Shown: positions 41,711 through 56,925 of the stretch, in pieces
Layout of the letters: each line of letters starts with the position of its first letter
Position numbering within the stretch: position 1 is the first letter of the stretch
Source: an uncultured Chloroflexia bacterium
GTDB lineage: Bacteria; Chloroflexota; Limnocylindria; Limnocylindrales; CSP1-4
DNA length: 64,000 bases
Assembly (NCBI GenBank): GCA_963833225.1
Contig: CAWHXD010000019.1
Location: 374,075 to 438,074 of the forward strand
Direction: 5' to 3'
Made by a program: the position numbers and the translations under genes
The notes under the pieces: model-generated
What the model was told of the DNA's origin: nothing
Database searches by the model: none
Seen by the model: only the letters and a program-made list of their open reading frames with translations

Positions 41711-41771
41711 TGCGTGACGGGCGCAGAATCGTCGTGCACAGACCTTGAGGGGTGCGGTACCGTTCGGTGGT

Positions 41772-41783: not shown

Positions 41784-41858
41784 CGACGCCGCTGGCCCGC
41801 TTCCCCTGCCCTCGATCTCCCTGCGGCCCTCCCGATCCGAACCCAGACCTCAGATCCC

Positions 41859-42905: not shown

Positions 42906-42938
42906 CCGTGCTCGAACCCATGACGTAAAGGAGGCCCG

Positions 42939-43358
42939 ATGCTCAAGACCCGCCTGCTTCACCCGGAGATCCTCGCCGCGCTCGGCGAGGCCGGCCACGG
43001 CGCCCAGGTGCTGATCGCGGACGGCAACTACCCGCTGGCCACGCGCTCCAACCCCGACGCCTACCGGGTGTTCCTCAATCTCGCGCCCGGCCAGCTCACC
43101 GTCACCGACGTCCTCGACGTCATCGCCGACGCGATCCCCATCGAGGCCGCCTGCGTGATGGGCCCCGACGATGACACGGAGCCGTCGATCTACGCGGACT
43201 TCCGACGGATCCTGCCGGACACGGAGCTCCAGCGGCTGGGCCGCTTCGAGTTCTACGACATGGCCAGGGGCCCGGACACGGCGCTCGCGATCGCCACCGG
43301 CGAGCAGCGCATCTACGCCAACATCCTGCTCACCATCGGGGTGGTGATGCCCGAGTAG
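42939..43358 (+). CDS. fucU: L-fucose mutarotase / RbsD-FucU family
   Basis: [27 protein letters not shown]...ERFEFYDMA...[14 protein letters not shown] is RbsD/FucU family. Lies directly upstream of fucI. Confidence 0.85.
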
Positions 43359-43410
43359 GGCAGGGCAGGTTTCGTTCACACCGCGTCCCAGGAACAAGAG
43401 GACCACGACC

Positions 43411-45216
43411 ATGACCACCGTCAACACGTCCGGCCGCTTCGTCGGGGACTGGCCCAGGATCGGTATCCGCCCCGCGGTCGACGGCCGCCAGCACGGCGTC
43501 CGTGAGTCGCTCGAGGAGCAGACCCGGAACATGGCGCTCCGGACGGCGGAGCTCATCCGCGCCAACCTGCGCTACCCGGACGGCACGCCCGTGGAGGTCG
43601 TGGTCCCCGACCACAACATCGGCGGCGTGTACGAGGCGGCCAAGGTTGCCGAGCTGTTCCGCAAGGAGGGCGTTGGCGTCTCGCTGACGATCACGCCCTG
43701 CTGGTGCTACGGCTCCGAGACGATGGACATGGATCCCCTGACCCCCAAGGCCGTATGGGGCTTCAACGGCACCGAGCGCCCGGGCGCTGTGTACCTCGCG
43801 GCGGTCCTCGCCGCCCACACCCAGAAGGGGCTGCCGGCGTTCGGCATCTACGGCCGAGACGTCCAGGACGCCGGCGACGGCACGATCCCTGACGACGTGC
43901 AGGCGAAGATCCTGCGCTTTGCGCGGGCCGGCATGGCCGCCGCGATCCTGCGCGGCAAGTCGTACCTGAGCCTCGGTGGCGTGTCCATGGGCATCGCCGG
44001 CTCGATCGTGGACCAGCCGTTCTTCGAGAAGTACCTGGGCATGCGTGTCGAGGCCGTCGACATGTCCGAGATCTACCGCCGGCTCGAGGAGGGGATCTAC
44101 GACCCGGTCGAGTTCGAGAAGGGTCTCGCCTGGGCCAGGGCCAACTGCCGCGAGGGTGTGGATCGCAACCCGGCCGACAAGGCCAAGACCCGCGAGGAGC
44201 TCGACCGCGACTGGGAGGTCGTGGTCAAGATGACCCTCATCGCGCGCGATCTCCTGGTGGGCAACCCGAGACTCGCCGAGCTCGGCTTCGGCGAGGAGGC
44301 GCTGGGCCGCAACGCGATCCTGGGCGGGTTCCAGGGTCAGCGGGCATGGACCGACCACAGCCCCAACGGCGACTTCATGGAGGCGATCCTCAACTCCAGC
44401 TTCGACTGGAACGGGATCCGCGCCCCGCACATGTTCGCGACCGAGAACGACTCGCTCAACGGCGCGACGATGCTGCTCTCCTACCTGCTGACCAACCGGG
44501 CCCAGATCTTCGCGGACGTCCGCACATACTGGAGCGCGGAGGCCGTGGAGCGGGTGACCGGGCACAGGCTCGAGGGTCTCGCCGCGGGCGGCTTCATCCA
44601 CCTCATCAACTCCGGCGCGGCGACGCTCGACGCCACCGGCGCGATGACGGACGCCGACGGCAAGCCGGCCATGAAGCCGTTCTGGGACATCACCGACGGC
44701 GACGTGAAGGCCGCGCTCGCGGCCACGACCTGGTACCCGGCCAACCGCGGCTACTTCCGCGGCGGCGGCTTCTCCAGCCAGTTCGTGTCCAAGGGCGGGA
44801 TGCCCGTCACCATGGCCCGCCTCAACCTCGTGAGCGGGACCGGACCCGTGCTCCAGATCGCCGAGGGCTGGACCGTGGACCTGCCCACGGATGTCCACGA
44901 CATCCTGGACCAGCGGACGGATCCCACCTGGCCCACCCACTGGTTCGTGCCGCGGACCACGGGCGAGGGCGTCTTCCGCGATGTCTACACCGTGATGGCC
45001 AACTGGGCCGCGAACCACGGTGCGATCAGCTACGGCCACATCGGTGCCGACCTGATCAGCCTGGCCTCGGTGCTCCGGATCCCGGTCCACATGCACAACG
45101 TGGCCGAGGAGGATCTCTTCCGACCCAGCGCGTGGGCCAACCTGGGCACGGCCGATCCGGAGGGCGCCGACTTCCGGGCCTGCGCCAGCTTCGGCCCGCT
45201 CTACGGTCGCAAGTAG
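43411..45216 (+). CDS. fucI: L-fucose isomerase
   Basis: 601 aa, colinear with FucI ([61 protein letters not shown]). Confidence 0.92.
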
Positions 45217-45306: not shown

Positions 45307-45630
45307 TCAGTCCTGGTGGAACAGCTCGTCCATCGACGCCCACCATTCGCCCTCGGCGCGGTCGGCGAGCGGCTCCTGGAGCGGCTTGTTGACCGCCCAC
45401 CACTCCTGGGTCGTGGGATCCTCGCCCATCCGGGCCATGTCTGCCTCGTAGTCCTCGCCGACGTACTCGAAGTAGCTGAACAGCCAGCCGCCGCGGTGGT
45501 AGATCGAGTAGTTGCGGATGTTGCACTCGGTGATCTTGGCGAGCACCGCCGGCCACACCGCGGCGTGGAGCTCGCCGTACCGGGCAAGGTTCTCGGGGGG
45601 CATGCGCAGCACGCTGGCGTACCTGGTCAT
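45307..45630 (-). CDS. L-rhamnose mutarotase family protein (second copy)
   Basis: MTRYASVLRMPPENLARYGELHAAVWPAVLAKITECNIRNYSIY...EWWASMDELFH (RhaM/YiiL family). GGAGG lies 8 nt upstream of ATG 45630. Confidence 0.85.
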   Translation of the reverse strand: MTRYASVLRMPPENLARYGELHAAVWPAVLAKITECNIRNYSIYHRGGWLFSYFEYVGEDYEADMARMGEDPTTQEWWAVNKPLQEPLADRAEGEWWASMDELFHQD

Positions 45631-45663
45631 CCTGGTGCCTCCACGATGCATGGGTGGGGGATT

Positions 45664-45696
45664 GGCGCCCGGCGGGGAGGAGGTCCGCCGGGCGCC
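45664..45696 (-). promoter_or_regulatory. perfect 12-bp-stem hairpin GGCGCCCGGCGG-9 nt-CCGCCGGGCGCC upstream of the second rhaM
   Basis: Read directly. On the mRNA strand the loop is ACCUCCUCC (anti-SD-like). The stem core CCCGGCGG/CCGCCGGG is shared with 29341-29369. Confidence 0.5.
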
Positions 45697-45711
45697 GTGA
45701 TCGACGGAGAG

Positions 45712-46902
45712 CTATTCCGCCGGCAGATGAAGCGGGTACGTCCCGTACTCGCGGACGAGCTTGACGATCTGGTCGTAGGTGTGACCCGACACGTCGCTCG
45801 CGACCGAGTGGTCGCTCATGAATACGTAGCCGCCGCCCTCGGCGGCGCGCAGCCGGTGGAGCACCTCGCGACGTACCTCGTCCGGATCGCCGCGCTCCCA
45901 GACGCGGATGTCGCTGTTGCCGCAGAACGTGAGCCGATGGCCCAGCCGCTCGCGGAGCGTGACGACGTCGAGGTCCGCCTTGGCCTCGAGCGGGTTGTAG
46001 CCGTCGAGCCCGATCTCGATCATGTCCTCGAAGATCGCGTTGGCGTTGCCGCACCCGTGGTACATGACCAGCAGGCCGTGCTGGTGGGCCAGCTCGATGA
46101 TCCGGGCGACCGTCGGCTTGTAGTACTTGCGCCAGTAGGTGGGGCCCATGAACAGGCTCTTGCCGTAGGCGACGTCGCCCCAGATGACGAGCCCGTCCAG
46201 GAGGCCGTCCGCCGCCTCGATCTGGGCCTTGGCGATCTCGTAGCTGAACTCGCCGATGCGAAGCAGCTGCTCGCCGAACCGCTCCGGGAACTCGCCGGTC
46301 CACATCAGGGTGTTGAGCTGGCCCAGGAGGCGCGTGCAGATCTCGGACGCCTCCGTGACGCTGCCGAACACCGGGAAGTCCGGGTACAGCCCCTTGACGG
46401 TCTCCACCCACGGCGGGCTGTTGCGCTCGAAGCCATCGCCCACGCCGGCGATCTGGTTGTCGCCGGCCTCGAAGTAGCGGCGCCGGTCGGTCGGGTCGTC
46501 GAACTCGAACGCCTCCAGCTTCTCGATCGTGTCCGTCTCCCAGCTCACCTGCTCGGGCATCGGCAGGTCGAAGCGCTTGCGGATCGTGGTCTCGAAGCCG
46601 GTCTTGACCACCACCTCCTCGTCGTCCTCGCGGATCGTCTCGAAGGCCCGGATGTGGGGATCCATGTTGGGGACGGTGGTGATGAAGTCGAGGTCGTAGT
46701 GGTAGTACGGATCGGCGTCGGCCGGCAGCCCCAGCTCCGTGCGCCACCGGTCACGGAACTGGCCCCAGAAGAAGTCCGTGATCGGGACGCGGTCCGCCTC
46801 CTGGTGCCCGAAGGTCTTCCGGATCCGGTCCAGCTTGGCCAGCGTCGAGGGCTTGCGGTCCGTGCCTCCGCCCCGTCCGTAGGTCTCGAACATGCCGGGC
46901 AT
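45712..46902 (-). CDS. uroporphyrinogen-decarboxylase (URO-D)/MtaA-family methyltransferase (methylcobamide-dependent type)
   Basis: 396 aa TIM-barrel-like sequence with an MtaA-style His/Cys metal motif (LVMYHGCGNA...LTFCGNSD). The ATG lies 4 nt after the corrinoid-protein stop. Confidence 0.7.
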   Translation of the reverse strand: MPGMFETYGRGGGTDRKPSTLAKLDRIRKTFGHQEADRVPITDFFWGQFRDRWRTELGLPADADPYYHYDLDFITTVPNMDPHIRAFETIREDDEEVVVKTGFETTIRKRFDLPMPEQVSWETDTIEKLEAFEFDDPTDRRRYFEAGDNQIAGVGDGFERNSPPWVETVKGLYPDFPVFGSVTEASEICTRLLGQLNTLMWTGEFPERFGEQLLRIGEFSYEIAKAQIEAADGLLDGLVIWGDVAYGKSLFMGPTYWRKYYKPTVARIIELAHQHGLLVMYHGCGNANAIFEDMIEIGLDGYNPLEAKADLDVVTLRERLGHRLTFCGNSDIRVWERGDPDEVRREVLHRLRAAEGGGYVFMSDHSVASDVSGHTYDQIVKLVREYGTYPLHLPAE

Positions 46903-46906
46903 CGGA

Positions 46907-47536
46907 TCAGCTCCCCGCCAACAGCTGCTTGGCCAGGTCCACCGCCGCACCCGCATCGGGAGCGAAGCCGTCGGCGCCGATCTGCTCGGCGAACTCGGGC
47001 GTGGTGGGCGCGCCACCGATCATCACCTTGGCACCGACGTCGGCGGCCTTGATGGCCTCCACCACGGCCCGCATGTTGGGCATCGTGGTGGTCAGCAGGG
47101 CGCTGAGGCCGATCAGGCGGGCGTCGTGCTCGCGGGCGGCCTCGACGAACTTGGCGGCGGACACGTTCACCCCGAGGTCGATGACCTCGATCGCCGCTCC
47201 CTTGAGCATCATGCCGACCAGGTTCTTGCCGATGTCGTGGAGGTCGCCCTCGACGGTCCCGATCACCGCCGTGTGCTCGGGCCGGATCCCGGCCTCCACC
47301 AGGCTCGGCTCGAGGATGGCCGTGGCTTCCTTCATCGCCCTCGCGGCGATGAGCATCTCGGGGACGAAGATCTCGCCCTCCTGGAACTTGCGGCCGATGA
47401 CCCCCATCGCCTCGGTCATCGCATCCAGGATCTCCTGGGCCGATACGCCCGCCGCCAGGGCCTCGGTTGTCAGCCGGGCCGCCGATGCCCGGTCGCCTGC
47501 CTCGATCGCCCTGCCCAGCTCGCCCAGGTCAGCCAT
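46907..47536 (-). CDS. corrinoid (cobalamin-binding) protein
   Basis: N-terminal helical B12-binding_2-like cap, then GTVEGDLHDIGKNLV (DxHxxG), SALLTTT (SxL) and MIGGAP. 209 aa. RBS GAGAGGAG. Confidence 0.88.
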   Translation of the reverse strand: MADLGELGRAIEAGDRASAARLTTEALAAGVSAQEILDAMTEAMGVIGRKFQEGEIFVPEMLIAARAMKEATAILEPSLVEAGIRPEHTAVIGTVEGDLHDIGKNLVGMMLKGAAIEVIDLGVNVSAAKFVEAAREHDARLIGLSALLTTTMPNMRAVVEAIKAADVGAKVMIGGAPTTPEFAEQIGADGFAPDAGAAVDLAKQLLAGS

Positions 47537-47598
47537 GTCTGTGACTCCTCTCGATACCAGGGTCGCGGTGGCCGCTCGTGGCCCCGCTCGCCCCGGGG

Positions 47599-48921
47599 TT
47601 ATGCCTTGGCCAGCCGCATGGCGACGTCGACCCACTCCCAGAGCCGTCGTGCGTCGTAGCGGATCGTGCTGACGTCCTTGAGGATCAGCTCCACCGGTGT
47701 CCCGGTGCGCCGGCACGCGTCGATCGTTGCCTGGAGCTCCTTCTCGACTGCCTCGGGCTCCCAGCTGTCCATCGCGAGGAGCGCCGGGTTGGGCTTGCGC
47801 GAGAACACGAAGTCGGGACCCATGCTCTCCGCGCCACGGTCCACGTTGACCCACGGGCACATCGAGATCTTCCGGACGTTGGGGATCTCCCGGATGATGT
47901 CGATCCGCCGGTCGAGCACGTCGCAGCAGCCGTAGTAGCCGAGCCCGAACCGCTCGTACCAGCGGACGGTGTACGGGATCTCGTACTCCTTGAACATCGC
48001 CGGCGAGGCGGAGGTGAAGACCTGCGCCATGCCCATCGTCCACAGGTCCTCGGCCCGCGGTCGCTCCGGGTCGAAGCCCTCGTGCGGCAGATCGTCGGTC
48101 CAGGCCGGCGTGCAGTGGACCGTGGACATCGAGTGCCCGAGCAGGCCCTGCGCCTCCATCTGGTCGAGCATGCCGAGATACGCGGTCACCAGGCGGTCGA
48201 TGATCCGGCGCGTATGGTCCGGGCGATCCGCCATGTCGATCAGGATGGCCTCCGCGCCTCGCCAGAACTCGATGGTGTCCCAGAAGTTCGCCCCGCCCGC
48301 CAGCAGCTCCGTCGGCCAGTCGTGCACCAGGGCCCGCGTCTCGGGCTGGGACTCGAGGCCGGGCCACTGGTTGGTGCTCGGCACCCAGCCCTGGAGACGG
48401 ACGGGCAGCACGCCGTCGAAGATGTCGTGCGCCTGGGCCTCGATCCGGGCGGTCTCCTCGGCATCGAGCCAGACCTTCGGGGTCCGGATCTTGTCGGCGT
48501 CCGACTCGTTCGCGAGCTGGTCGATGAAGTGGTGGGAGACGATGTCGTTGCGGGCGTCGACGGCCTCGGTCTCCTCGACCATCTCGATCCCGAAGCCATC
48601 CAGGCGGAGGACCTTCGGGATGAGCAGCACCGGCTCGACCACCATGTCCGCGCGTATGTGCTCCCAGCGATACAGGGTGCGGCGAAGATCGATCTCGAGC
48701 CCGCGATTGAATGGGTCCGTGCACTGGTTGACCAGCATCGGATCATCGGCCAGCTCGTGCCAGGGCAGCTGGTCCAGCGCCACCATCGGGCGCTGCGGAT
48801 GCAGGTCGTTGACCGCCTTCCAGAGCGAGATGGTCTCCTGCTGGACGGGCAGCGCCGCGATCTCGGCGACGCGGCTTCCGAGCTCCCGCAGGATCTCGCG
48901 GTCCCGGGCTACCCCGGCCAT
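47599..48921 (-). CDS. conserved hypothetical protein; positional candidate for the substrate-specific methyltransferase of the corrinoid system (possibly a distant URO-D-like barrel)
   Basis: 440 aa. ATG 48921 lies 6 nt after GGAGGAG. Codon usage looks coding, and Cys-containing blocks are present (YYGCCDVLD, ISMCPW). The family was not securely recognised by eye. Confidence 0.5.
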   Translation of the reverse strand: MAGVARDREILRELGSRVAEIAALPVQQETISLWKAVNDLHPQRPMVALDQLPWHELADDPMLVNQCTDPFNRGLEIDLRRTLYRWEHIRADMVVEPVLLIPKVLRLDGFGIEMVEETEAVDARNDIVSHHFIDQLANESDADKIRTPKVWLDAEETARIEAQAHDIFDGVLPVRLQGWVPSTNQWPGLESQPETRALVHDWPTELLAGGANFWDTIEFWRGAEAILIDMADRPDHTRRIIDRLVTAYLGMLDQMEAQGLLGHSMSTVHCTPAWTDDLPHEGFDPERPRAEDLWTMGMAQVFTSASPAMFKEYEIPYTVRWYERFGLGYYGCCDVLDRRIDIIREIPNVRKISMCPWVNVDRGAESMGPDFVFSRKPNPALLAMDSWEPEAVEKELQATIDACRRTGTPVELILKDVSTIRYDARRLWEWVDVAMRLAKA

Positions 48922-49218
48922 ATGCCACTCCTCCAGGACGCCTGTATCGTCAACCCTGGGCCGCCGCGGGCCCGTCCGCGACACCTCAAGGGTGCAAGAC
49001 TACCATAATCGGCCGTTGGTATATCGATTTTTCGCGCCATTCGTGGCACCATTCAGGCACCGCGACGTGCGTGACCCGGGCGATCTCCGCACGAATGGGG
49101 AGGACATGAGCCAGACGCTGACAAGGCACCCGGATACGGTGAATGGAGGACCGATGGTTCGTCATGGGCCAGAAGTCACGCGTGATAGCGATCCCAGCCA
49201 CTGCTCGCTGGCCGATCC

Positions 49219-50508
49219 ATGCCCGGCCACGAGGCCCGGGCTGTGACCCCGGCCACGGTCCGCCTCGCCTTTGGTCGAGATGGCCTCGAGATCGACGTGC
49301 CGGCCGGCGTGGACGTGCTCCTGCCACGGGCCCGGGTACCGCTCGCCGACCCTGGGGCGGCGCTCCGGGCGGCGCTGGCCGCGCCGGCGACGGCCCATCC
49401 GCTGCCGGAGCTGGCGCCGATCGGCAGCACCGTGGCGGTGAGCGTCTGTGACGTCACGCGTCCGTTTCCATCGCGGGTGGTCCTCCCGGTGCTCCTCGAT
49501 CAGCTCCCGGGCCGGCACGTGCGGCTGGTGATCGCCACCGGAAGTCATCGCGCGTGCACGGACCGGGAGCTCGAGGCGATGCTCGGACCCCGGGTTCTCG
49601 CCAGGTGCGAGGTGGTCCAGCATGATGCGGATGACCCTGCCGCCCATGTCACGCTGGGAACGGTGCCCGGCTCGGATGTGCCGGCCCGCGTCGATCGCCG
49701 GTTCATCGAGGCGGATGTCCGGGTCACGCTGGGATTCGTGGAGCCCCACTTCTTCGCGGGGTTCTCCGGCGGACCCAAGATGGTGGTTCCCGGCCTGGCC
49801 GGCATCGACACCATCCGCGAGCTGCATTCGGTGGCCCGGATCGCCAGCCCCCACGCGACGTGGGGCGTGCTCGACGGCAACCCGGTCCATGATCCGATCC
49901 GGGCGATTGCCGCCCGCGCCGGCGTGGACTTCGCGCTCGACGTCGCGCTCGACGAGGGGAACCGGATCTCCGCCGTCTTCTCGGGGTCGCTGGAGGCCGA
50001 GCACCGCGAGGCATGCGCCGACGTCCGCCAGACGGCAATGGTCGGCGTCGCGGAGCCGTACGACGTCGTCGTCACGACCAACAGCGGGTATCCGCTGGAC
50101 CAGAACCTCTACCAGTGCGTGAAGGGCCTCAAGGCCGCGGCGGGGATCGTGCGCGACGGTGGCACGATCATCCTGGCTGCGGCCTGCGAGGACGGGCTGC
50201 CAGCCCACGGCCGCTACGCGCACCTGCTGGCGAGCGCGCCCGGACCGGCCGAGTTCCTCGCGGCCCTCTCCCGAGGGGAGATCTCGGAGCGGGACCAGTG
50301 GCAGGTGCAGGTGCAGGCGGGGATCCAGGCGCGCGCTCGCGTCCTCGCCCACACGCCCGGCCTGGGCGCCGAGGATCTGCGGAGGGCGTGGCTTCAGGCG
50401 GCGGATGACGTGGCGGTCGCCCTGCGGGACGCCCTCGCGGTGGCCGGTCCGGGGGCGCGTGCGGCGATCCTGCCAGTCGGTCCCCAGACGATCGCGTATG
50501 TGACCTGA
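49219..50508 (+). CDS. larA: LarA-family nickel-pincer-dependent 2-hydroxyacid racemase/epimerase homolog (DUF2088)
   Basis: VIATGSHR, GFVEPHFFAGFSGGPKMVVPG (cofactor-Lys block), TTNSGYPLDQNLYQCVKG. The exact start is uncertain (ATG 49219 or a downstream GTG). Confidence 0.8.
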   Translation: MPGHEARAVTPATVRLAFGRDGLEIDVPAGVDVLLPRARVPLADPGAALRAALAAPATAHPLPELAPIGSTVAVSVCDVTRPFPSRVVLPVLLDQLPGRHVRLVIATGSHRACTDRELEAMLGPRVLARCEVVQHDADDPAAHVTLGTVPGSDVPARVDRRFIEADVRVTLGFVEPHFFAGFSGGPKMVVPGLAGIDTIRELHSVARIASPHATWGVLDGNPVHDPIRAIAARAGVDFALDVALDEGNRISAVFSGSLEAEHREACADVRQTAMVGVAEPYDVVVTTNSGYPLDQNLYQCVKGLKAAAGIVRDGGTIILAAACEDGLPAHGRYAHLLASAPGPAEFLAALSRGEISERDQWQVQVQAGIQARARVLAHTPGLGAEDLRRAWLQAADDVAVALRDALAVAGPGARAAILPVGPQTIAYVT

Positions 50509-50576
50509 GCCCGTTCGTTTGACATGCCAACGTCCGCTGTCTACCGTGGACAAACGTTGTTTCAGAGGAGCCGACC

Positions 50577-51446
50577 TTGACCGTCATCGACGCCCACCAG
50601 CACTTCTGGAACCCGAGCCGCGTCGCCTATGACTGGCTGGGACCGGATCTGGGCCCGATCAACCGGGCCATCGAGTTTGCGGACCTGGAGCCGCTGCTTG
50701 CGGCCACGGGCGTGGAACGCACGGTCCTCGTCCAGTCGGCGGACAACGCAGCCGACACCGACTTCATGTTCGAGATCGCGGCCGCGCACCCCGAGATCGC
50801 GGCCGTGGTCGGCTGGGTCCCACTCGATGATCCGGTTGCCACGGCGGAGCGCCTCCCGGTGTTGCTCGCGAACCCGGTGTTCGCCGGGATCCGCAACCTG
50901 ATCCATACGCAGCCCGATCCCGACTGGCTGCTGAGGCCCGACGTGGATGAGTCCCTGGGCCTCCTCGCTGCCCGGGACGTGCCGTTCGACGTCGTATCGG
51001 TCCTGCCCCGGCACCTGGAGCACGTCCCGACCCTGTCCGAGCGACACCCCGAGCTCCGGATGGTCATCGACCATCTCTCCAAGCCGCCCATCAAGGCCGC
51101 GAGCGACGAGCCCTGGCGGTCCCTCATCGCTCGCGCGGCCGAGAACCCGCTCGTGTTCGCCAAGGTCTCGGGTCTGTACCCGTCCGTCGGCGACATGGCC
51201 GCCTGGACAGCGGACGACGTGCGGCCCTATCTGCACACGGCCCTCGAGCTGTTCGGCGCCAAGCGCCTCATGTTCGGTGGCGACTGGCCGATCTCGGTGC
51301 TGGCCGGTGGGTACGTGCGGGTGTGGGAGAACCTGAGCAGCCTGTTCGACGAGCTGTCGGCCGAAGACCGGGAAGCCATCCTGGGTGGGACCGCGGCGCA
51401 GTTCTATGGAATCCCGGCGGGCCGGCTCCCGGGAGGCGGCGCGTGA
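50577..51446 (+). CDS. amidohydrolase-2 family sugar lactonase (L-fucono-/L-rhamnono-lactonase-like)
   Basis: IDAHQHFWNP...VLVQ...IDHLSKPP...FGGDWP is the signature of the COG3618 lactonase group. Confidence 0.75.
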   Translation: MTVIDAHQHFWNPSRVAYDWLGPDLGPINRAIEFADLEPLLAATGVERTVLVQSADNAADTDFMFEIAAAHPEIAAVVGWVPLDDPVATAERLPVLLANPVFAGIRNLIHTQPDPDWLLRPDVDESLGLLAARDVPFDVVSVLPRHLEHVPTLSERHPELRMVIDHLSKPPIKAASDEPWRSLIARAAENPLVFAKVSGLYPSVGDMAAWTADDVRPYLHTALELFGAKRLMFGGDWPISVLAGGYVRVWENLSSLFDELSAEDREAILGGTAAQFYGIPAGRLPGGGA

Positions 51447-52525
51447 TCACGCGGTTTGATCCCGTCGCCGAGGCCTGCCGGATCGAGGTCCCCGACGCCC
51501 ATCGACGGCCGATCGCCATCGTCGGCGCCGGCGCCATCGTGGACTTCGCGCACCTGCCGGCCTATCGCGCCGCCGGCCTCGAGGTTGCCGGGATCCACAA
51601 CCACCATCCCGCGCGGGCCGTCGACGTGGCCGGCCGTCACGGTGTGCCGCGGGTCTACGAGACGCTCGAGGACCTGCTTGGCGACGACCGGGTCGAGGTG
51701 GTGGACGTCGCCGTGTCCGCGGCCGCCCAGCCCGAGATCGTGCGCCGGGCGCTCGAATCGGGGCGCCACGTGCTAGCCCAGAAGCCGTTCGCACCGGATC
51801 CGGCCACCGGCCAGGCGCTGGTGGACCTCGCCGAGTCGCGCGGGCTGGTCCTGGTCGTGAACCAGCAGCTCCGCTTCGACGAGGGGATGGCCGCGGCCCA
51901 CCGGATGGTCGAGCTGGGCTGGATCGGCGACGTCACCGCGATGTCGATCACGGTCAACATCTGGACGGACTGGCATTCCTGGCCATGGATGCTCGAGACA
52001 CCCCGGCTGGAGGTGATGGTCCATTCGATCCACTATCACGACGTGATCCGCTGGTTCCTGGGCGAGCCGTCGCTCGTGTTCAGCGTCGGAGGCCGCACGC
52101 CGGGCCAGGCGCCCGTCGGGGAGACGCGGACCGTGACCACGTCCACCTATCCGTCCGGCGCGATCTCCGTGGTCCACGCCAACCACGAGAACGGCACCGG
52201 TGACAACCTCGCGACGTTCCGCATCGATGGCTCGCGGGGTGCGATCCGGGGCACCCTGGGCCTGCTCTACGACTACCCCAGCGGGCGGCCGGACACCCTG
52301 GAGATCAGCAGCGAGGTGCTGCCGACTGACGGCTGGGTCCCCTATCCGGTGGGCTCACGCTGGCTGCCCGACGCGTTCCTGGGGCCTATGGCGTCGCTGC
52401 TGCGGGCGGTCGCCACCGGGTCCACGCCCCGTTCCAGCGGCCGCGACAACGTGGGCACGCTGCGGCAGATCCAGCGGATCTACGAATCGATGGAGCGGGG
52501 AGCGGCGGTCCGGGTCGAGGGCTGA
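51443..52525 (+). CDS. Gfo/Idh/MocA family NAD(P)-dependent oxidoreductase (candidate sugar 1-dehydrogenase)
   Basis: IAIVGAGAIV...HVLAQKPFA Rossmann/EKP-like motif. GTG 51443 overlaps the lactonase stop (GTGA). Confidence 0.8.
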   Translation: MITRFDPVAEACRIEVPDAHRRPIAIVGAGAIVDFAHLPAYRAAGLEVAGIHNHHPARAVDVAGRHGVPRVYETLEDLLGDDRVEVVDVAVSAAAQPEIVRRALESGRHVLAQKPFAPDPATGQALVDLAESRGLVLVVNQQLRFDEGMAAAHRMVELGWIGDVTAMSITVNIWTDWHSWPWMLETPRLEVMVHSIHYHDVIRWFLGEPSLVFSVGGRTPGQAPVGETRTVTTSTYPSGAISVVHANHENGTGDNLATFRIDGSRGAIRGTLGLLYDYPSGRPDTLEISSEVLPTDGWVPYPVGSRWLPDAFLGPMASLLRAVATGSTPRSSGRDNVGTLRQIQRIYESMERGAAVRVEG

Positions 52526-52536
52526 GCCGGCGCCGA

Positions 52537-52998
52537 TCAGGCGGGTGCCGACCCGCGCTTCTCGACGACGTACAGGTGGACGAGGACGAGCACCACCTCG
52601 CCGGCCTGGTTGGTCACGGTCACCGTCTCCTCGACCATGCCCAGCGCCTCGGGTCGCCGGCGGTGGTCGGCCAGGCCCGTGATCTCGGCTCGCACCGTGA
52701 TCGTGTCACCGATGAACACGGGCCGCACGAACCGGACCCGATCGTAGCCGTAGCTCATCGCCCGGGGGTTGATGTCGCCCGCCGTCATGCCCACGGCCAT
52801 CGACATCACGAGCGTGCCATGTGCCATCCGGCGCTCGAAGGCCTGCGTGGCGCACCACTCGGCGTCCATGTGGTGGGGGAAGAAGTCGCCGGTCTGCCCG
52901 GCGTGCAGGACGATGTCGGCCTCGGTCACGGTCCGGCCCGTGGTCGTCCGGCTGGTGCCGGTGACGTAGTCCTCGAAGAACGCCTCAACCGTGTTCAT
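52537..52998 (-). CDS. MaoC-like (R-specific enoyl-CoA hydratase / hot-dog fold) dehydratase
   Basis: 153 aa: [23 protein letters not shown]...AHGTLV...[15 protein letters not shown] overlap with the upstream gene. Confidence 0.85.
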
Positions 52999-54143
52999 GT
53001 CGCGGTCTCCTCCTCCCGTGCCCGGGCGACCACCCGGTCGGCCGCCTCCAGGCAGGCCGCGTCGGTCAGCTCACCGCGCAGGGCCCGGTTGACCAGCCCG
53101 CCCACCTCGTCCTGGACCTGCAGCCAGCCATCGAACCGGGGCCGCACCCAGGCGCCGTCCAGCGTCCGCCGCGTGCCGCGGAAGAACCCCAGGCTGTCGG
53201 CGTCGACCGCCTCGTCGTCCCAGGCGTCGATGTTGGCCGGCTGGCCGCCGCTGGCGTAGTAGACGCCGCGCTGGACCTCGCCGCTCGCGAGCCAGAAGGC
53301 ATGGTCGACGGCAATCTCCGGCTGCGGCGAGAAGGCCGACACCGCGATCCCGGCGCCACCCAGGCAGGAGCCGGCGACGCCCCGGGGACCGGCGGGCATG
53401 TCCACGTAGGCGAGGCGGTGGGCACGGAACCCGGCACGGCTGTAGTTCGTATAGCCGAAGGCGAGCGGCGCGTAGCACCAGCGATCATCAGTGGCGAGGC
53501 GTTCCGCAGCCTGGATCGGGTTCTCGTCGAGGCATGCCGGATCGACCAGCTCCGCGAGGTGGTGCAGGTCCTCGAGGATGCCCTCGCCGTCCCCGCGGGC
53601 GATGAACCCGTCCCCGGCGATCGCGGCGCCGCGGTTTGCCGCGAGCGTCAGGAAGCTCGAGATGGCGTCCACCGGCTTGGCCGGCCAGACGACCCTGCCC
53701 GTGCGTGCGAGCTCGAGCACCTCGTCCCACGTCTTCGGCGGCACGGGCAGCAGATCGGGGCGATGGATGGCCACCTGGGCCGCGGCATCGATCGCGAGGC
53801 CGTACTGGTGACCGGCGTGCGCATAGGTCGCGTGTGACGGGCCGACGGCCTGCGTCGCGAGGGCCGCAAGCTCCACGTCACGACCGCACGTGTCGAGCGC
53901 GGCGAGGAGCCCGGCTGTCGCCGCGTGCGGGATGTGCGGATGGTCGATCACCATCAGGTCGTACGTCCGGGCGAGGGTCTCGAGCGGCTGGTCGGCGAAC
54001 CCCTGGAGCGATCGGGCCTCCCACTCCACCCGCACGCCGGGGTGGAGCGAGCTGTAGGCCTCCGCCGCCCCCCGCACGCTGTCCAGGCCGCGCGGATGGT
54101 CCCACGTCATGCCTCGGAGAACCGCCGGCAGCGGATCGCTCAT
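52995..54143 (-). CDS. solute-binding-protein-like protein without signal peptide (cytoplasmic), unknown function
   Basis: 382 aa. The N-terminus [19 protein letters not shown] has no hydrophobic or lipobox segment. Overall SBP family-1-like pattern (LMVIDHP..., WDEVLELA..., GGAGIAVS). ATGA overlaps on both sides. Confidence 0.55.
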
Positions 54144-55390
54144 GCGCCCGCCGCGTCGTCGATGGGACGGAGGTCCAGCTCCGCGTCGATGGACGCCGTG
54201 TGCTCGCCCAGCCGCGGGGCGCCCCGGTCGCCGCCCAGCGTGCCGTGGTCGATCCGCAGCGGGCTCCGGGTCGTGTGCAGGGTCACCTCGCCGTCGCCCG
54301 TAGCCGAGGGCCGTCGCACCACCCGGTCCATCGCCAGGGCATGGAACCCCTCGTGGCCGACGAGATCGGGCAGCGTGAGCACGGGAGCGCACCACACGTC
54401 CGCCGGCTCCAGGATGTCGAGCCAGTCGCGGGTCGGGCGCGTGGACAGGTGGGCCGCCAGCAGGTCCTCGATCCGCTCCCGCTCCGTCCACCACGTCTCG
54501 GGGTCGCCGAATGCCGACAGGGCATCGAGCCCGATGAGCTCGCCGAGCCGCGGCACCGAGTTCATCGCGAGCGCGAGGTACCCGTCCGCGGTGGGGTAGA
54601 CGCCGTACGGGGCGGCGAGGAAGGCGTTGGCCCCGTGCGGTCCACCGCGGTCAACGAGCACCGACGGATCGTTCAGGTGGGCGCTGAGGAGCTCGAACTG
54701 GAGGTCGAGCATTCCCTCCATCAGGCTGGTCTCCACCAGGCCACCCTTGCCGGTGCGCTCACGGCGCAGGAGCAGCGCCGTGATGCCCTGCGCCAGGTGG
54801 ACCGAGGCGAGCAGGTCCGCGATCGACAGCCCGACCGGCACCGGCCCGTGGTCCCGGCTCCCGCTGAGCCACGGCAGGCCCGACATCGACTGCGCGAGCA
54901 GGTCCTGGCCGGGCAGGTCGCGCCACGGCCCATCGGGCCCGTAGCCGCTCACGCTCCCGTAGACCAGGCGCGGGTTGAGCGCCCGCGCGGATTCGAAGTC
55001 CAGCCCGATGCGCTCCATGACCCCCGGCCGGAAGTTCTGGATGAGCACGTCGGCGCGGGCCACGAGCCGGCGGATGGCCGCCAGGTCGGACGCGTTCTTG
55101 AGGTCGGCGGCGTAGCTCTCCTTGCCGCGGTTCATGATCTGGAACGAGAGGGTGTCGCCGTCGAGGAACTTGCCGGCGAAGGCGAGCGTGCGCCCGATGT
55201 CGCCGACCCCGGGACGCTCGATCTTGATCACCCGGGCCCCGAGATCGGACAGCCGCATCGCGGCGACGGGCCCGGCGAGGAACTGGCTGAAGTCGAGGAC
55301 CAGGATGCCGTCCAACGGCGGGATCGGCACCTTCCGGGCTCCCTCGCGTGCGGCACCCATCCGTGCTCCTCCCTCGTCGGCTCGGTTCAT
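54140..55390 (-). CDS. family III CoA-transferase (CaiB/BaiF/Frc family)
   Basis: PLDGILVLDFSQFLAGPVAAMRLSDLGARVIKIERP...NRGKES...VLIQNFRPG...GYG...GQDLLAQ is canonical. Confidence 0.88.
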   Translation of the reverse strand: MNRADEGGARMGAAREGARKVPIPPLDGILVLDFSQFLAGPVAAMRLSDLGARVIKIERPGVGDIGRTLAFAGKFLDGDTLSFQIMNRGKESYAADLKNASDLAAIRRLVARADVLIQNFRPGVMERIGLDFESARALNPRLVYGSVSGYGPDGPWRDLPGQDLLAQSMSGLPWLSGSRDHGPVPVGLSIADLLASVHLAQGITALLLRRERTGKGGLVETSLMEGMLDLQFELLSAHLNDPSVLVDRGGPHGANAFLAAPYGVYPTADGYLALAMNSVPRLGELIGLDALSAFGDPETWWTERERIEDLLAAHLSTRPTRDWLDILEPADVWCAPVLTLPDLVGHEGFHALAMDRVVRRPSATGDGEVTLHTTRSPLRIDHGTLGGDRGAPRLGEHTASIDAELDLRPIDDAAGA

Positions 55391-55400
55391 CACGTCCTCG

Positions 55401-56615
55401 TCAGCTCGCCGATGCCCGCTCGGCGACCGTGACCAGCGGCTGGCAGGCCGGCCCGATGGGCTCGAAGCTCTTGTAGCCGAGGACGAACTCCTGGTGGCCC
55501 ATCTGCTCGCTCGCGGTCTGGCGGCCATCGGCCACGTCACGGACCAGCTGCACGATCTCGGCACCGACCTCCGCCAGGGTTCCCCGGCCCTCGATCACGC
55601 GCCCGGCGTTGACGTCCATGTCGTCGGCCATCCGGGCGTACGTCTCGGGGTTGGCGCAGACCTTGACGATCGGCGAGATCGCGGACCCCACGACCGAGCC
55701 GCGGCCGGTCGTGAACAGGATCATGTGGGCGCCACAGGCCATGAGCTCGGCCGCCTCGGCGTTGTCGTTGATGTTGGGGAAGCCCCACCGCACCTCGCCG
55801 TCCGGGATCACGTCGAGCAGGTAGAGGCCTGGGTGGGCCGGGATGTCGCCGGGCTTGATGATCCCGCTGATGGCTGCCCGGCCGCTCTTGGCATAGGCGC
55901 CCAGGGACTTCTCCTCGATGGTCGTGAGCCCGCCCTCGGCGTTGCCGGCGGCGAAGCTCCCGTGCCCGAGCACGTTGTAGTAGGCCTCCGCCTTGTGCAC
56001 GGCGCCCACGAGGGCCTGGCCCAGGTCCGGGGTGATCGCGCGCTCCGCCATCCGGTACTCGCAGCCGATGAGCTCGCCGGTCTCCTCGAAGATCGCGACC
56101 GCGCCGGCCGCCACCAGCTGGTCGAACGCGAGGCCGACCGCCGGGTTGGCCGTGATGCCGCTGGTGCTGTCGGAGCCCCCGCAGATGGTGCCGATGACCA
56201 GGTCGGAGAGGTCCATCGGCACCCGCGGGACGCTGGCGATCTCGTTGATGGCCTGCCGGACCCAGGCCCGTCCGGCCTCGATCGTGGCTCGCGTGCCACC
56301 CGCGTGCTGGACGACCAGCGTGTGCACCGGGCGGCCGCTCGCCGCGACGGTCCGCGCGAGCTCGGCCCGGTCGAACCCCTCGCAGCCCAGCGAGACGATC
56401 AGCACCGCACCGACGTTGGGATGGGTCGCGAGCCGGTGGAGCATCAGCGCCCCGTAGTCGTTGGGATAGCAGCCGCCGAACCCGATCACGTGGACGTCGT
56501 CCTCGAGCCCGCTCGCGATGCGGGTGGCGACGTGGTGGGAGCACTCGACCGTGTAGATCACCGCGACGACGTTGCGGATGCCCTTGCGGCCGTCGGACCG
56601 GAGGAACCCCTGCAT
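55401..56615 (-). CDS. UxaA/GarD-family sugar-acid dehydratase, large (catalytic) subunit
   Basis: GFLRSDGRKGIRN, VSLGCE, ICGGSDSTSGITANP, FTTGRGS is the altronate/galactarate dehydratase C-terminal domain pattern. Confidence 0.85.
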   Translation of the reverse strand: MQGFLRSDGRKGIRNVVAVIYTVECSHHVATRIASGLEDDVHVIGFGGCYPNDYGALMLHRLATHPNVGAVLIVSLGCEGFDRAELARTVAASGRPVHTLVVQHAGGTRATIEAGRAWVRQAINEIASVPRVPMDLSDLVIGTICGGSDSTSGITANPAVGLAFDQLVAAGAVAIFEETGELIGCEYRMAERAITPDLGQALVGAVHKAEAYYNVLGHGSFAAGNAEGGLTTIEEKSLGAYAKSGRAAISGIIKPGDIPAHPGLYLLDVIPDGEVRWGFPNINDNAEAAELMACGAHMILFTTGRGSVVGSAISPIVKVCANPETYARMADDMDVNAGRVIEGRGTLAEVGAEIVQLVRDVADGRQTASEQMGHQEFVLGYKSFEPIGPACQPLVTVAERASAS

Positions 56616-56619
56616 GCGG

Positions 56620-56925
56620 TCAGGCCTCCCCTCGCGCGTGCGTGCGCATGTAGATGCTGGTGAGGTTGTGGGTGTGGATCAGCTCGCCGCGGGTGACCGG
56701 CTGCGTCGTCCGTCCGATGGGCATCCCGTACCGGATCGCGTCGGTTCCCTGGGCGAGGTCCAGGGCAGCGACCTTGAACCCCAGTGGCAGCGGGACCTGC
56801 GTCTCGACGCTGACCCCGTCGACCATCATCCGCTCGCCGGCGGCGATGGCGGCGATCACGATCAGCACGTTGTCCCCGTCCGCGAGCCGGAGCAGCCGGG
56901 GATCGGATCCGCCCGCGTCGCTCAC
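56620..56925 (-). CDS. UxaA-family dehydratase small subunit (SAF domain)
   Basis: DNVLIVIAAIAAGERMMVDG...VPLPLGFKVAALDLAQGTDAIRYGMPIG...GELIHTHN (SAF/altronate dehydratase N-terminal). The likely GTG start at 56925 overlaps the RraA-like stop (GTGA). The track start is 56937. Confidence 0.8.
   Translation of the reverse strand: MSDAGGSDPRLLRLADGDNVLIVIAAIAAGERMMVDGVSVETQVPLPLGFKVAALDLAQGTDAIRYGMPIGRTTQPVTRGELIHTHNLTSIYMRTHARGEA

Follow-up and report, generated by a model that had tools for sequence, protein, structure and literature searches.

Gene content of the deoxyhexose island

The window, by which we mean the whole 64 kb stretch of DNA analysed, contains a deoxyhexose island, as an earlier note on this DNA had proposed, with genes for FucU, FucI, RhaI, RhaB, an ABC transporter, a RhaEW-type fusion and two RhaM-like proteins (Table 1). 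Within it lies a gene for a LarA homolog, in a frame that is open from 49219 to 50508 on the plus strand, with Pfam matches to Lar_N (E 3e-45) and LarA_C (E 2e-27) and the sequence blocks ATGSHR and GFVEPHFFAGFSGGPK. These domains and blocks confirm the LarA gene of the earlier note, which had placed the start at the ATG at 49219. The true start is probably the in-frame GTG 24 nt inside, at 49243, since homologs have 421 aa and the relative L001 (91% identity) has ATG at the position of that GTG.

Table 1. Features of the window around the LarA homolog
Feature	Position	Strand	Evidence or remarks
RhaI, RhaB, sugar ABC transporter genes	~26-35 kb		
Aldolase-SDR fusion, RhaEW-type	35845-38364		
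LacI regulator, FucU mutarotase, L-fucose isomerase (FucI)	41745..45216	+	Pfam; FucU and FucI at 42939-45216
Operon divergent from LarA, transcribed last to first	45307..48921	-	Pfam, NCBIfam
RhaM-like mutarotase	45307-45651	-	divergent operon
URO-D/MtaA-like methyltransferase	45712-46902	-	divergent operon
Corrinoid protein	46907-47536	-	divergent operon; DxHxxG motif
URO-D-fold protein, 440 aa	47599-48921	-	divergent operon; model and fold search
Intergenic region, LarA/corrinoid methyltransferase operon (divergent)	48922..49242	.	blocks 49017-49030 and 49182-49197 conserved in relatives
LarA homolog	49243..50508	+	421 aa, GTG start; Pfam Lar_N and LarA_C
LarA/lactonase spacer, 68 nt	50509..50576	+	TTGACA 50519-50524, 17 nt, TACCGT 50542-50547
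Amidohydrolase-2 sugar lactonase (L-fucono-1,5-lactonase family)	50577..51446	+	Pfam Amidohydro_2 E 2e-50
Gfo/Idh/MocA oxidoreductase	51443..52525	+	Pfam; GTG start 51443
Operon convergent with LarA set, transcribed last to first	52537..57611	-	Pfam, NCBIfam; order kept in relatives
MaoC hydratase	52537-52998	-	convergent operon
Cytoplasmic SBP-like protein	52995-54143	-	convergent operon
Family III CoA-transferase	54140-55390	-	convergent operon
UxaA large subunit	55401-56615	-	convergent operon; UxaA-type dehydratase split
UxaA small (SAF) subunit	56620-56937	-	convergent operon
RraA-like aldolase/decarboxylase	56922-57611	-	convergent operon
Sugar ABC transporter: SBP; permeases	57822-59216; 59353-60285, 60297-61223	+	Pfam
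LacI regulator	61255-62355	+	Pfam
Extended SDR	62362-63387	-	Pfam
FAH-family hydrolase, partial (5' part beyond window)	63392..64000	-	Pfam

The two same-strand neighbours named in the earlier note were likewise found by Pfam and sequence: a lactonase carrying IDAHQHFW, and a Gfo/Idh/MocA oxidoreductase whose start overlaps the lactonase stop by 4 nt (GTGA), an overlap that is identical in relatives. The best NCBIfam model for the lactonase was FuconLaconase (189.7 bits; cut-off 400), and its best PDB matches were 4DLF/4DNM (124 bits), which we take to be the B. multivorans L-fuconolactonase. Lactonase orthologs of 63% identity belong to fuconate-type clusters that also encode an AKR, an enolase-type dehydratase, RhaM, FAH and SDR. 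The oxidoreductase matched PDB entry 5UHW best (67 bits) and gave no equivalog match in NCBIfam. The candidates that had been suggested for later steps (UxaA, SDR and FAH) are present by Pfam, all on the minus strand. Each step of a non-phosphorylating route has a candidate (Gfo/Idh/MocA, split UxaA, RraA-like, extended SDR, FAH), none of which reaches an equivalog cut-off. The SDR and FAH proteins are 56% and 60% identical, respectively, to those of a fuconate-type cluster in the actinomycete locus L005. The UxaA and RraA genes share their operon with genes for a CoA-transferase, MaoC and an SBP-like protein with no signal peptide, which are unused in the known fucose/rhamnose pathway. No lactate dehydrogenase, oxidase or permease genes were found within the 64 kb.

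LarA had also been described as heading the lactonase/dehydrogenase set. The adjacency is real and is kept in relatives of 77-95% identity, a narrow clade to which it is confined. The description holds only in part, given a conserved promoter/operator-like footprint in the spacer, the lack of the lactonase-to-LacI block in L001 and the existence of lactonase clusters without LarA elsewhere. In the spacer, the putative promoter elements are followed by a LacI-operator-like GGACAAACGTTGTTTC at 50548-50563; TTGACA is kept in L082 only and the GG.CAA.CGTT core in both L082 and L001. L001 retains LarA and the upstream region and is missing the counterpart of 50561-62113, so that synteny stops inside the spacer. 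Orthologous lactonase clusters of the fuconate type without LarA were seen in actinobacteria (Leifsonia-like and Microbacterium genomes). Because of these three observations, we suggest that LarA is probably transcribed alone, divergent from the corrinoid methyltransferase operon, and that expression of the lactonase and oxidoreductase genes would start from a promoter in the spacer under LacI-type control. LarA and the lactonase may also be co-transcribed, since the sequence following LarA has no predicted terminator and a consensus promoter scan does not pick up the promoter-like site. On the other side, the RhaM-containing operon remains the divergent partner of LarA in all relatives of 77-91% identity with DNA (L001, L082, L084, L085) or gene calls (P0003). 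A three-way alignment of the window, L082 and L001 revealed the two conserved blocks in the intergenic region; the region has no Rfam match, and neither block has a second copy in the window beyond chance.

Catalytic residues and substrate pocket of the LarA homolog

Compared against NCBIfam, the protein matched the LarA model best (Ni_dep_LarA, 431.6 bits), ~150 bits ahead of the next family and 28 bits below the equivalog cut-off (NF033504, 460 bits). The malate racemase models scored 282 and 271 bits and LarAH10 207 bits. The Lar_N + LarA_C architecture extends over the full length of the LarA homolog (PF09861, 154 bits; PF21113, 97 bits), and lactate racemases head its PDB matches (9EID, 257 bits, alignment spanning residues 13-426; 2YJG, 241 bits; 5HUQ, 214 bits), with malate racemase 6D6Z at 160 bits. 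All 8 catalytic, cofactor- and carboxylate-binding residues of Lactiplantibacillus plantarum LarA are conserved (R75, H108, H174, K184, H200, Y294, Q295 and K298). The residues that bind the nickel-pincer nucleotide (NPN) are present, with Lys184 as thioamide tether and His200 as Ni ligand alongside Arg75; SGGPK, IRELHS and CDVTRP align with L. plantarum, and these residues are invariant in almost all of 202 orthologs. The catalytic His108 and His174 and the residues that bind the carboxylate and 2-OH (Tyr294, Gln295, Lys298) are found in ATGSHR, VEPHFF and NLYQCVK. These features place the protein in the lactate-racemase (LAR) group of NPN-dependent 2-hydroxyacid racemases. If it works like the solved enzymes, the conserved lysine would anchor the cofactor, the two histidines would shuttle the C2 proton, and a hydride would pass to the cofactor and back, leaving C2 inverted.

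At the positions equivalent to F175, F176, W358 and T359 the window protein has F,F,W,Q. According to PMC11770544, lactate racemases have F,F,W,E/Q at these positions and the D-gluconate 2-epimerases GntE have E,V,A,H; the window protein carries the former signature and lacks the latter. A 12-residue signature is identical in 181 of the 202 orthologs, and 13 more differ solely by E at the last position, independent of context. Since the Phe-Phe-Trp-Gln pocket is small and rigid, the enzyme would be expected to accept lactate and perhaps further C3-C4 acids, for instance glycerate. PMC11851776 explains the narrow substrate range of L. plantarum LarA by its rigid Phe175/Phe176. Characterised enzymes with the pocket type of the window protein are ~1000-fold less efficient on C4 (dihydroxy) acids than on lactate, and gluconate/mannonate activity is absent from the substrates listed for them.

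The canonical lactate racemases of L. plantarum (5HUQ/6C1W) and Thermoanaerobacterium thermosaccharolyticum (2YJG) share the architecture, the eight residues and the first three pocket positions (Phe-Phe-Trp) with the window protein, which differs at the fourth, having Gln instead of Thr and Glu, respectively. Whereas canonical LarA serves cell-wall D-lactate supply, the window gene lies outside any larA-E operon, in a sugar island. The host differs as well, being a high-GC soil organism that resembles actinobacteria. The closest structural relative by sequence is Isosphaera pallida LarA (LarAH2/SAR, 9EIA/9EID), a broad-spectrum short-chain 2-hydroxyacid racemase whose pocket is lined at the back by the same Trp-Gln pair but has Leu174/Met175 in place of Phe/Phe. 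As PMC11851776 ties Leu/Met to the wider substrate range, the window protein would be expected to have a narrower one. The lactate/glycerate racemase LarAH43 of the gut anaerobe Enterocloster asparagiformis, compared here by its description in PMC11770544, is another LAR-group enzyme and has Gln at T359, like the window protein.

Orthologs and cofactor genes

LarA occurs in fuconate-type clusters in several lineages, both in Actinomycetes (L005, L013, L071, L077) and in Chloroflexia (L073). The L005 and L073 loci have a GntR regulator, an FAH hydrolase and LarA on the same strand, with FAH and LarA overlapping by 4 nt or lying 3 nt apart, beside a lactonase, an extended SDR, an enolase-type dehydratase and a sugar ABC transporter; the enolase-type dehydratase adjoins LarA also in L013, L071 and L077. 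Genes for GlcD/E/F adjoin LarA in ~10 of 80 loci, and the same island of the relatives L082 and L085 has LutABC-like genes inserted. In the majority of the 80 loci, no deoxysugar or lactate genes lie within 10 kb of LarA; the association with such genes is therefore recurrent without being general.

In agreement with the earlier note, no significant match to larB, larC or larE was found in the 64 kb by tblastn with LarB, LarC and LarE queries from an ortholog operon (best E 0.006, 42 residues). In three cultured actinomycetes, namely Saccharopolyspora soli and two members of Streptosporangium, the cofactor genes accompany LarA in an operon, as larA-larE-larB-larC (L023) or larA-larB-larC-larE (L071, L077). 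Only 6 of 80 genomes have larC within 10 kb of the LarA ortholog, which makes its absence from the window the rule and no warning. The cofactor pathway is presumably present in this genome. An inactive apo-protein or relic, in a genome unable to make the nickel-pincer cofactor, would fit the lack of all three genes from the window; it is the least probable of the readings considered here, a very slim chance, given this rarity of linkage and a frame that is intact and full length with all cofactor-binding and catalytic residues conserved.

Proposed role and alternatives

The combined evidence suggests that the LarA homolog, probably transcribed as a separate unit, is on balance a lactate (possibly also glycerate) racemase handling the L-lactate end-product of deoxyhexose breakdown. 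This corresponds to one of two readings in the earlier note, racemisation of the L-lactate end-product, and is supported by the pocket, by LarA as the best model and by orthologs elsewhere beside an L-lactate-releasing FAH hydrolase and GlcDEF-type oxidases. All island routes would lead to L-lactate or its precursor L-lactaldehyde: RhaEW from rhamnose, FucI via L-lactaldehyde, and the oxidative lactonase/dehydratase/FAH route. In route 3 of fucose/rhamnose catabolism an FAH-type hydrolase yields pyruvate and L-lactate (PMC11199699). RhaEW likewise leads to L-lactate, and lactate dehydrogenase genes occur in Actinomycetales rhamnose regulons (PMC3870299). We infer the in vivo substrate and the direction of flux from this context: interconversion of L-lactate and D-lactate would let the cell's stereospecific lactate oxidase, whichever kind it has, reach pyruvate.

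The other reading in the earlier note was a 6-deoxy-aldonate C2 epimerase, which by analogy with GntE would pass the dehydrogenase/lactonase product to the dehydratase, for example by converting 6-deoxy-L-talonate to L-fuconate or L-rhamnonate to 6-deoxy-L-gluconate. LarA does lie on the same strand directly upstream of the lactonase and oxidoreductase, 68 nt away with no predicted terminator. GntE (LarAH19/20/15) shares the superfamily and C2-inversion chemistry with the window protein and sets an example of a LarA homolog whose product goes to an aldonate dehydratase, and LarAH10 shows that gluconate epimerisation can also arise outside the GntE clade; 6-deoxy-aldonates are absent from the substrates listed for LarA-family enzymes in the available parts of PMC11770544 and PMC11851776, which leaves room for such an activity. 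We nevertheless disfavour this reading and regard it as quite improbable, since the pocket is F,F,W,Q and not E,V,A,H, and the hexonate-epimerase models scored far under their cut-offs (LarAH14/15/16, NF052592, 64.8 bits versus 740; putative hexonate epimerase, NF052594, 22.8 bits versus 500) and against 432 bits for LarA. The reported loss of efficiency on C4 acids argues in the same direction, as do the lactonase clusters that function without LarA and a pocket that is identical in larBCE, GlcDEF and unrelated contexts, which gives no sign of neofunctionalisation.

Two further explanations keep the enzyme class, and we consider each of them unlikely. The physiological substrate could be another short 2-hydroxy acid from the island. 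L-glycerate would be released by the fuconate-type hydrolase if a promiscuous pathway ran on L-galactose, with the D-glycerate form needed for use; 2-hydroxybutyrate or 2,3-dihydroxybutyrate could come from the UxaA/RraA/CoA-transferase/MaoC branch, and this convergent operon is without an assigned pathway. Lactate racemases also act on glycerate, 2-hydroxybutyrate and 2,4-dihydroxybutyrate and epimerise 4-deoxy-threonate/erythronate, and the Gln shared with LarAH43 goes together there with a glycerate activity slightly above that on lactate (PMC11770544). However, this link rests on one enzyme, and I. pallida LarA, with Gln too, prefers lactate and 2-hydroxybutyrate (PMC11851776). The recurrent GlcDEF and the LutABC-like genes of relatives indicate lactate/glycolate and not glycerate, and none of the annotated neighbours was identified as a glycerate kinase. 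Alternatively, a lactate racemase for general D/L-lactate use could have no functional tie to the sugar genes, its adjacency being an accident of island assembly in a narrow lineage. The variable context would fit, with unrelated LarA neighbours in L083 (75%) and L002 (70%), no neighbour family in more than 15 of the 80 loci, and L001 without the lactonase block. Against such an accident stand the independent lineages with LarA in fuconate-type clusters, the tight FAH/LarA spacing in L005 and L073, and the retained divergent pairing with the RhaM-containing operon.

The favoured role, a lactate racemase serving deoxyhexose catabolism, has its nearest parallel in the lldD and lldEFG/lutABC genes recruited into Actinomycetales rhamnose regulons (Rodionova et al. 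2013, PMC3870299), where L-lactate handling likewise sits inside a deoxyhexose locus. Those loci recruit an oxidase, whereas the L-lactate function recruited at the window locus would be a racemase; no mention of LarA in a deoxyhexose utilisation locus was found in the literature searched. As a counterpoint, the LutABC-like genes in the islands of L082 and L085 would, by analogy with lldEFG, presumably oxidise L-lactate, and a racemase is not obviously needed beside them.

The LarA gene and its predicted substrate pocket

Genes in the window (G+C ~71%) were called by third-position GC and checked against Pfam. The plus-strand frame at 49219-50508, in which the earlier note had reported LarA signature motifs, carries both motifs together with the Lar_N (E = 3e-45) and LarA_C (E = 2e-27) domains. 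Because LarA homologs are nearly all 416-427 aa long and the 91% identical relative (locus L001) has an ATG at the exact position of the window's GTG at 49243, with GAGG ahead of that start, the predicted coding sequence is most likely 49243-50508, giving a protein of 421 aa. No database record was identical to the protein in either its 429-aa or its 421-aa form.

The solved structures closest in sequence to the window LarA were lactate racemases. For subfamily assignment we used NCBIfam models, which are separate for the experimentally defined LarA subfamilies. Alignment to the L. plantarum enzyme revealed that Arg75, His108, His174, Lys184, His200, Tyr294, Gln295, and Lys298 are all kept (8 of 8).

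Scores of the window LarA against solved structures and NCBIfam subfamily models
Target	Description	Score (bits)	Cut-off (bits)
PDB 9EID/9EIA	I. pallida LarA	257	
PDB 2YJG	T. thermosaccharolyticum LarA	241	
PDB 5HUQ/6C1W	L. plantarum LarA	214	
PDB 6D6Z	Malate racemase Mar2	160	
NF033504	LarA	431.6	460
NCBIfam	Malate racemase, LarAH6 family	282	500
NCBIfam	Malate racemase, LarAH5 family	271	462
NCBIfam	LarAH10	207	540
NCBIfam	LarAH14/15/16 (includes a GntE)	65	740
NF052594	Putative hexonate epimerase	23	500

According to Urdiain-Arraiza et al. (PMC11770544), four pocket positions (F175, F176, W358, and T359) define the LarA subfamilies, being F,F,W,E/Q in lactate racemases, E,V,A,H in gluconate 2-epimerases, and Y,F,H/Q,T in 2-hydroxyglutarate racemases; in malate racemases the last two read H/Q,K. 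The window LarA has F,F,W,Q. In the work of Gatreddi et al. (PMC11851776), the substituent at the substrate C-alpha faces the space lined by these four residues, and rigidity of Phe175/Phe176 is given as the cause of the narrow range of L. plantarum LarA; at these two positions I. pallida LarA, which has a broad range, carries Leu/Met and the window LarA Phe/Phe. For enzymes with the lactate-racemase pocket, the literature reports a measured efficiency ~1000-fold lower on C4 dihydroxy acids than on lactate and lists no gluconate or mannonate activity.

We aligned the pocket across 202 orthologs (120 database matches of 58-91% identity, 81 loci, and the window). The 12-residue signature RHHFFKHYQKWQ was identical in 181 of them, and 13 others differed just by Glu at the last position. 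The signature positions were alike in the window LarA, in relatives with the same cluster, and in copies adjoining FAH or GlcDEF genes or lying in larBCE operons. Across genomic contexts, these positions give no sign that the window lineage has been retooled for a six-carbon substrate. In all sequence-level comparisons the protein agreed with the lactate-racemase group except for the NCBIfam cut-off, missed by 28 bits, and it agreed with the GntE group in neither pocket signature nor NCBIfam models (0 of 2).

Genomic surroundings of LarA

Coordinates of features surrounding LarA in the window
Feature	Position	Strand	Basis
RhaI-like, FGGY kinase, and sugar ABC transporter genes	~26-35 kb		
Class II aldolase-SDR fusion with the architecture of bifunctional RhaEW (rhamnulose-1-phosphate aldolase/L-lactaldehyde dehydrogenase)	35845-38364	plus	
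FucU and FucI	42.9-45.2 kb		
Operon divergent from LarA (440-aa protein, corrinoid protein, URO-D/MtaA-like protein, RhaM-like mutarotase)	45307-48921	minus	
CoA-transferase/SBP-fold/hydratase module (L086, 2350-5275; L087, 17443-20560)	52537-55390	minus	
Split UxaA-type dehydratase	55401-56937	minus	Pfam
Extended SDR	62362-63387	minus	Pfam
FAH hydrolase, partial	63392 to window end	minus	Pfam

The two genes that the earlier note had placed downstream of LarA were both confirmed by Pfam and sequence: an Amidohydro_2 gene with IDAHQHFW (50577-51446, 68 nt after LarA), and a Gfo/Idh/MocA gene that starts with GTG inside the lactonase stop, the two sharing GTGA. The candidates for later steps (UxaA, SDR, and FAH) are all present, although all lie on the minus strand. 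The proposed deoxyhexose island was likewise recovered, with FucU/FucI, two RhaM-like genes, a RhaI-like gene, an FGGY kinase, and the aldolase-SDR fusion. Two Zn-dependent alcohol dehydrogenase genes follow the fusion (37866-41089). An RraA-like protein of the HMG/CHA aldolase family, which could be a 2-keto-3-deoxy-aldonate aldolase, precedes the split dehydratase (SAF and large subunits; 55401-57611, minus strand). A fused E1 gene (alpha and beta, 891 aa) and an E2 acyltransferase gene of a 2-oxoacid dehydrogenase complex (20323-25036, minus strand) adjoin a SorC-type sugar regulator and rhamnose genes.

In relatives with 77-80% identical LarA (P0003, P0010/L084, P0011/L082, and P0058/L085), gene calls or DNA revealed an arrangement identical to that of the window: a minus-strand part beside LarA (RhaM, URO-D-like, B12-binding, and ~440-aa proteins), the plus-strand LarA, lactonase, and Gfo genes, a further minus-strand part (MaoC, SBP-like, CoA-transferase, UxaA large and small, RraA-like), and a last plus-strand part with SBP and permeases. 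LutABC-like genes (LUD, Fer4, and CCG domains) lie between the RhaM and URO-D-like genes in L082 (3431-6287) and L085 (2801-4607); the 64-kb window has no Lut homologs, and these two genes are adjacent there. A 90% identical LarA was found on a 2.6-kb contig and a 95% identical lactonase was recorded from a contig of equal length and the same source, so that the two probably lie together. The neighbors of LarA in L083 (75%) and L002 (70%) are unrelated to those of the window.

L001 (compared over 1-1830) aligns to window positions 48878-50561, a stretch that runs from the 5' end of the divergent gene across the intergenic region and LarA into the spacer, most of which it includes. Beyond the equivalent of 50561, this locus has only short remnants of 62113-62177 and 62833-62881 and an unrelated LacI gene. 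It keeps LarA and its upstream region and lacks 11.5 kb extending from the lactonase as far as the second LacI gene, which looks like a deletion or a misjoin of the metagenome contig at the operator-like spacer site. The 68-nt spacer between LarA and the lactonase contains TTGACA, 17 nt, TACCGT, and then the operator-like 16-mer GGACAAACGTTGTTTC; the TTGACA is kept in L082, and a GG.CAA.CGTT core in both L082 and L001. From this conservation and the L001 break-point we infer that the lactonase pair has its own LacI-controlled promoter in the spacer, although a consensus scan of 48800-52700 returned neither promoter nor terminator; read-through from LarA into the pair may also occur. Upstream, LarA shares a 321-nt region with the divergent operon. 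Two intergenic blocks there, at 49017-49030 (TGGTATATCGATTT, nearly conserved) and 49182-49197 (GTGATAGCGATCCCAG, fully conserved) in the 77-91% relatives, are candidate binding sites for a regulator of the divergent pair. Rfam had no match in the window or the LarA upstream region, which disfavors a known riboswitch as their explanation, and no further copies beyond chance were found of the 16-mer or, in the window, of either block.

A wider set comprised 80 species-level genomes with LarA 45-70% identical, the best listed relative being at 70%, and their flanking ORFs were clustered all against all. Among the matches listed, no neighbor family was common to more than 15 of the 80 loci, and four themes recurred: fuconate-type genes, GlcDEF, larBCE, and a classical SDR. 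Among the same matches, 8 loci had a FAH hydrolase within 10 kb of LarA and 5-6 had an enolase-type dehydratase, GlcD, GlcE, and GlcF adjoined LarA in ~10 loci (Vicinamibacterales and others), and the classical SDR occurred in 15. In L005, GntR, FAH, and LarA share one strand with a 4-nt FAH/LarA overlap; around them lie a lactonase, an enolase-type dehydratase, a sugar ABC transporter, and an extended SDR that is 56% identical to that of the window. In L073 (Chloroflexia), FAH ends 3 nt before LarA with a lactonase and an enolase-type dehydratase upstream, and in L013 such a dehydratase lies 35 nt upstream. This recurrent embedding of LarA in fuconate-type clusters seems to be unreported, there being no mention of it in the LarA, rhamnose, or SAR202 papers searched.

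As the earlier note had claimed, larB, larC, and larE were not found in the 64-kb window by tblastn with the LarB, LarC, and LarE of one ortholog operon (best E = 0.006 over 42 residues). Since larC lies within 10 kb of LarA in just 6 of the 80 loci among the matches listed, this absence says little. The order larA-larE-larB-larC occurs in Saccharopolyspora soli, and two Streptosporangium genomes have GntR-larA-larB-larC-larE, which runs divergently to an enolase-type dehydratase gene.

Probable role of LarA in deoxyhexose catabolism

All deoxyhexose routes encoded in the island would end in L-lactate or L-lactaldehyde. DHAP and L-lactate are what RhaEW makes from rhamnulose-1-phosphate (PMC3870299), and the FucI route would lead to L-lactaldehyde. 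The non-phosphorylating routes yield pyruvate and L-lactaldehyde through an aldolase, or pyruvate and L-lactate through a 4-dehydrogenase and a FAH-type hydrolase (PMC11199699); lldD and lldEFG lie within rhamnose regulons of Actinomycetales (Rodionova et al., PMC3870299). We consider that LarA is probably a lactate racemase handling L-lactate from deoxyhexose catabolism, the first role suggested in the earlier note; the lactate-racemase pocket, LarA as the best family model, and orthologs beside FAH and GlcDEF genes are consistent with it. By analogy with solved homologs, the conserved lysine would hold the nickel-pincer nucleotide (NPN) as a tether, and proton-coupled hydride transfer would proceed via the two histidines. 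LarA would equilibrate L- and D-lactate so that whichever oxidase is available, of GlcDEF/D-lactate or of Lut/Lld type, completes the pathway.

The best NCBIfam model of the lactonase was L-fucono-1,5-lactonase (190 bits, cut-off 400), and its best PDB match was 4DLF/4DNM (124 bits), which we take to be the L-fuconolactonase from Burkholderia multivorans described by Hobbs et al. (2013), a study that PMC11199699 cites. Orthologs with 63% identity, on a Leifsonia-like contig (L086) and in Microbacterium sp. AZCO (L087), share their clusters with genes for AKR, SDR, GntR, RhaM, an enolase-type dehydratase, and a sugar ABC transporter (in L087 also FAH and Zn-ADH). A Gfo gene, CoA-transferase III, a hydratase of MaoC or ECH type, and a protein that is SBP-like or unannotated are present as well. 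Neither cluster has a LarA, so the oxidative deoxyhexose module, including its CoA-dependent part, works without it, and LarA looks like an optional add-on. The view that LarA heads a lactonase/dehydrogenase set holds for the adjacency in the 77-95% relatives but not for the block missing from L001 or for these clusters. That LarA is a lactate racemase functionally unconnected with the island is unlikely in our judgment.

We give about the same small chance to an enzyme of this class acting on another short acid, glycerate first: Gln at the fourth pocket position accompanies high glycerate activity in LarAH43, and a promiscuous fuconate pathway acting on L-galactose would yield L-glycerate. 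An aldonate 2-epimerase, the second role offered in the earlier note, is very improbable, the pocket being F,F,W,Q and not E,V,A,H and the hexonate-epimerase models scoring far below their cut-offs. Here the adjacency of lactonase and dehydrogenase had hinted at a sugar-acid epimerase, and the four pocket positions and family models argue otherwise, a caution for annotation. We regard an inactive protein as the least probable case, all eight aligned residues being kept. If the lactate racemase reading is right, the protein would be one more lactate-racemase-type LarA, adding little to enzymology; it would couple fucose- and rhamnose-derived L-lactate to the cell's own stereospecific lactate oxidase, and offer a physiological reason for the presence of LarA among soil Actinomycetota, Chloroflexota, and Acidobacteriota, groups known mostly from metagenome bins.

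Corrinoid methyltransferase operon and CoA-dependent genes

The CoA-transferase/SBP-like/MaoC module and the corrinoid methyltransferase operon are more unusual material than LarA. A family III CoA-transferase, a MaoC/ECH hydratase, and an SBP-fold protein that lacks a signal peptide and is cytoplasmic co-occur with fuconate-type clusters in three actinobacterial lineages; we know of no CoA-dependent step in the non-phosphorylating fucose and rhamnose routes. The UxaA-type dehydratase occupies in the window the place of the enolase-type dehydratase in the L005, L086, and L087 clusters.

The 440-aa protein of the operon has no sequence-level family, profile searches against the PDB and the neighboring URO-D-like protein being negative. 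Its AlphaFold model (pLDDT 89.6) is predicted to have a URO-D fold (Foldseek E = 1e-7; best target-normalized TM 0.62, to MtaA 4AY7). The corrinoid protein carries DxHxxG, and on the P0003 contig MTHFR-like, pterin-binding, RACo-type activase, and DUF1638 genes follow the operon. Together these genes make up the parts list of a putative corrinoid:tetrahydrofolate O-demethylase, beside a mutarotase in a sugar island, and an O-methyl-deoxyhexose demethylase is a possible and attractive idea. The only sugar demethylases known to us are P450s, carbohydrate demethylation by which is the subject of a 2018 Biochem J title. The mlp methyltransferase cluster is associated with methyl-sulfur/selenide metabolism and anoxic habitats. 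A 55% homolog of the 440-aa protein, on a metagenome contig and in a cluster labeled Armatimonadetes, lies beside large glycoside hydrolases and further URO-D paralogs.

The supercluster of ~17 kb (45307-62355) is conserved in at least 4 related metagenomic genomes. It is doubtful, a shade more so than the glycerate case, that it catabolizes O-methylated 6-deoxyhexoses via corrinoid-dependent demethylation, oxidation and lactone opening, and a new dehydratase/aldolase/CoA-dependent branch, with LarA acting on a pathway-specific short 2-hydroxy acid and not on bulk lactate. If true, both the corrinoid-dependent demethylation of sugars and the dedication of an NPN racemase to a sugar pathway would be new.

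The adjoining putative demethylase led us to consider a LigI/LigC/LigK-like identity (protocatechuate 4,5-cleavage) for the lactonase, Gfo, and RraA-like proteins. It was rejected, since the lactonase best matches L-fuconolactonase and its orthologs lie in fuconate clusters; the lack of a ring-cleavage dioxygenase among the annotated window genes also counts against it.

A respiratory module unrelated to the sugar island lies at 8904-13749 (minus strand), adjoining a LuxR-type regulator; it comprises a 4Fe-4S protein, an NrfD-like membrane subunit, and multihaem cytochrome c (Cytochrome_C7, paired CXXCH). A pair of divergently oriented CitMHS-family transporter genes and one gene for an aldo/keto reductase lie at 1898-4615 and 6609-7628; AKR homologs using the nickel-pincer cofactor, with a His/Lys motif, were reportedly described in 2026.
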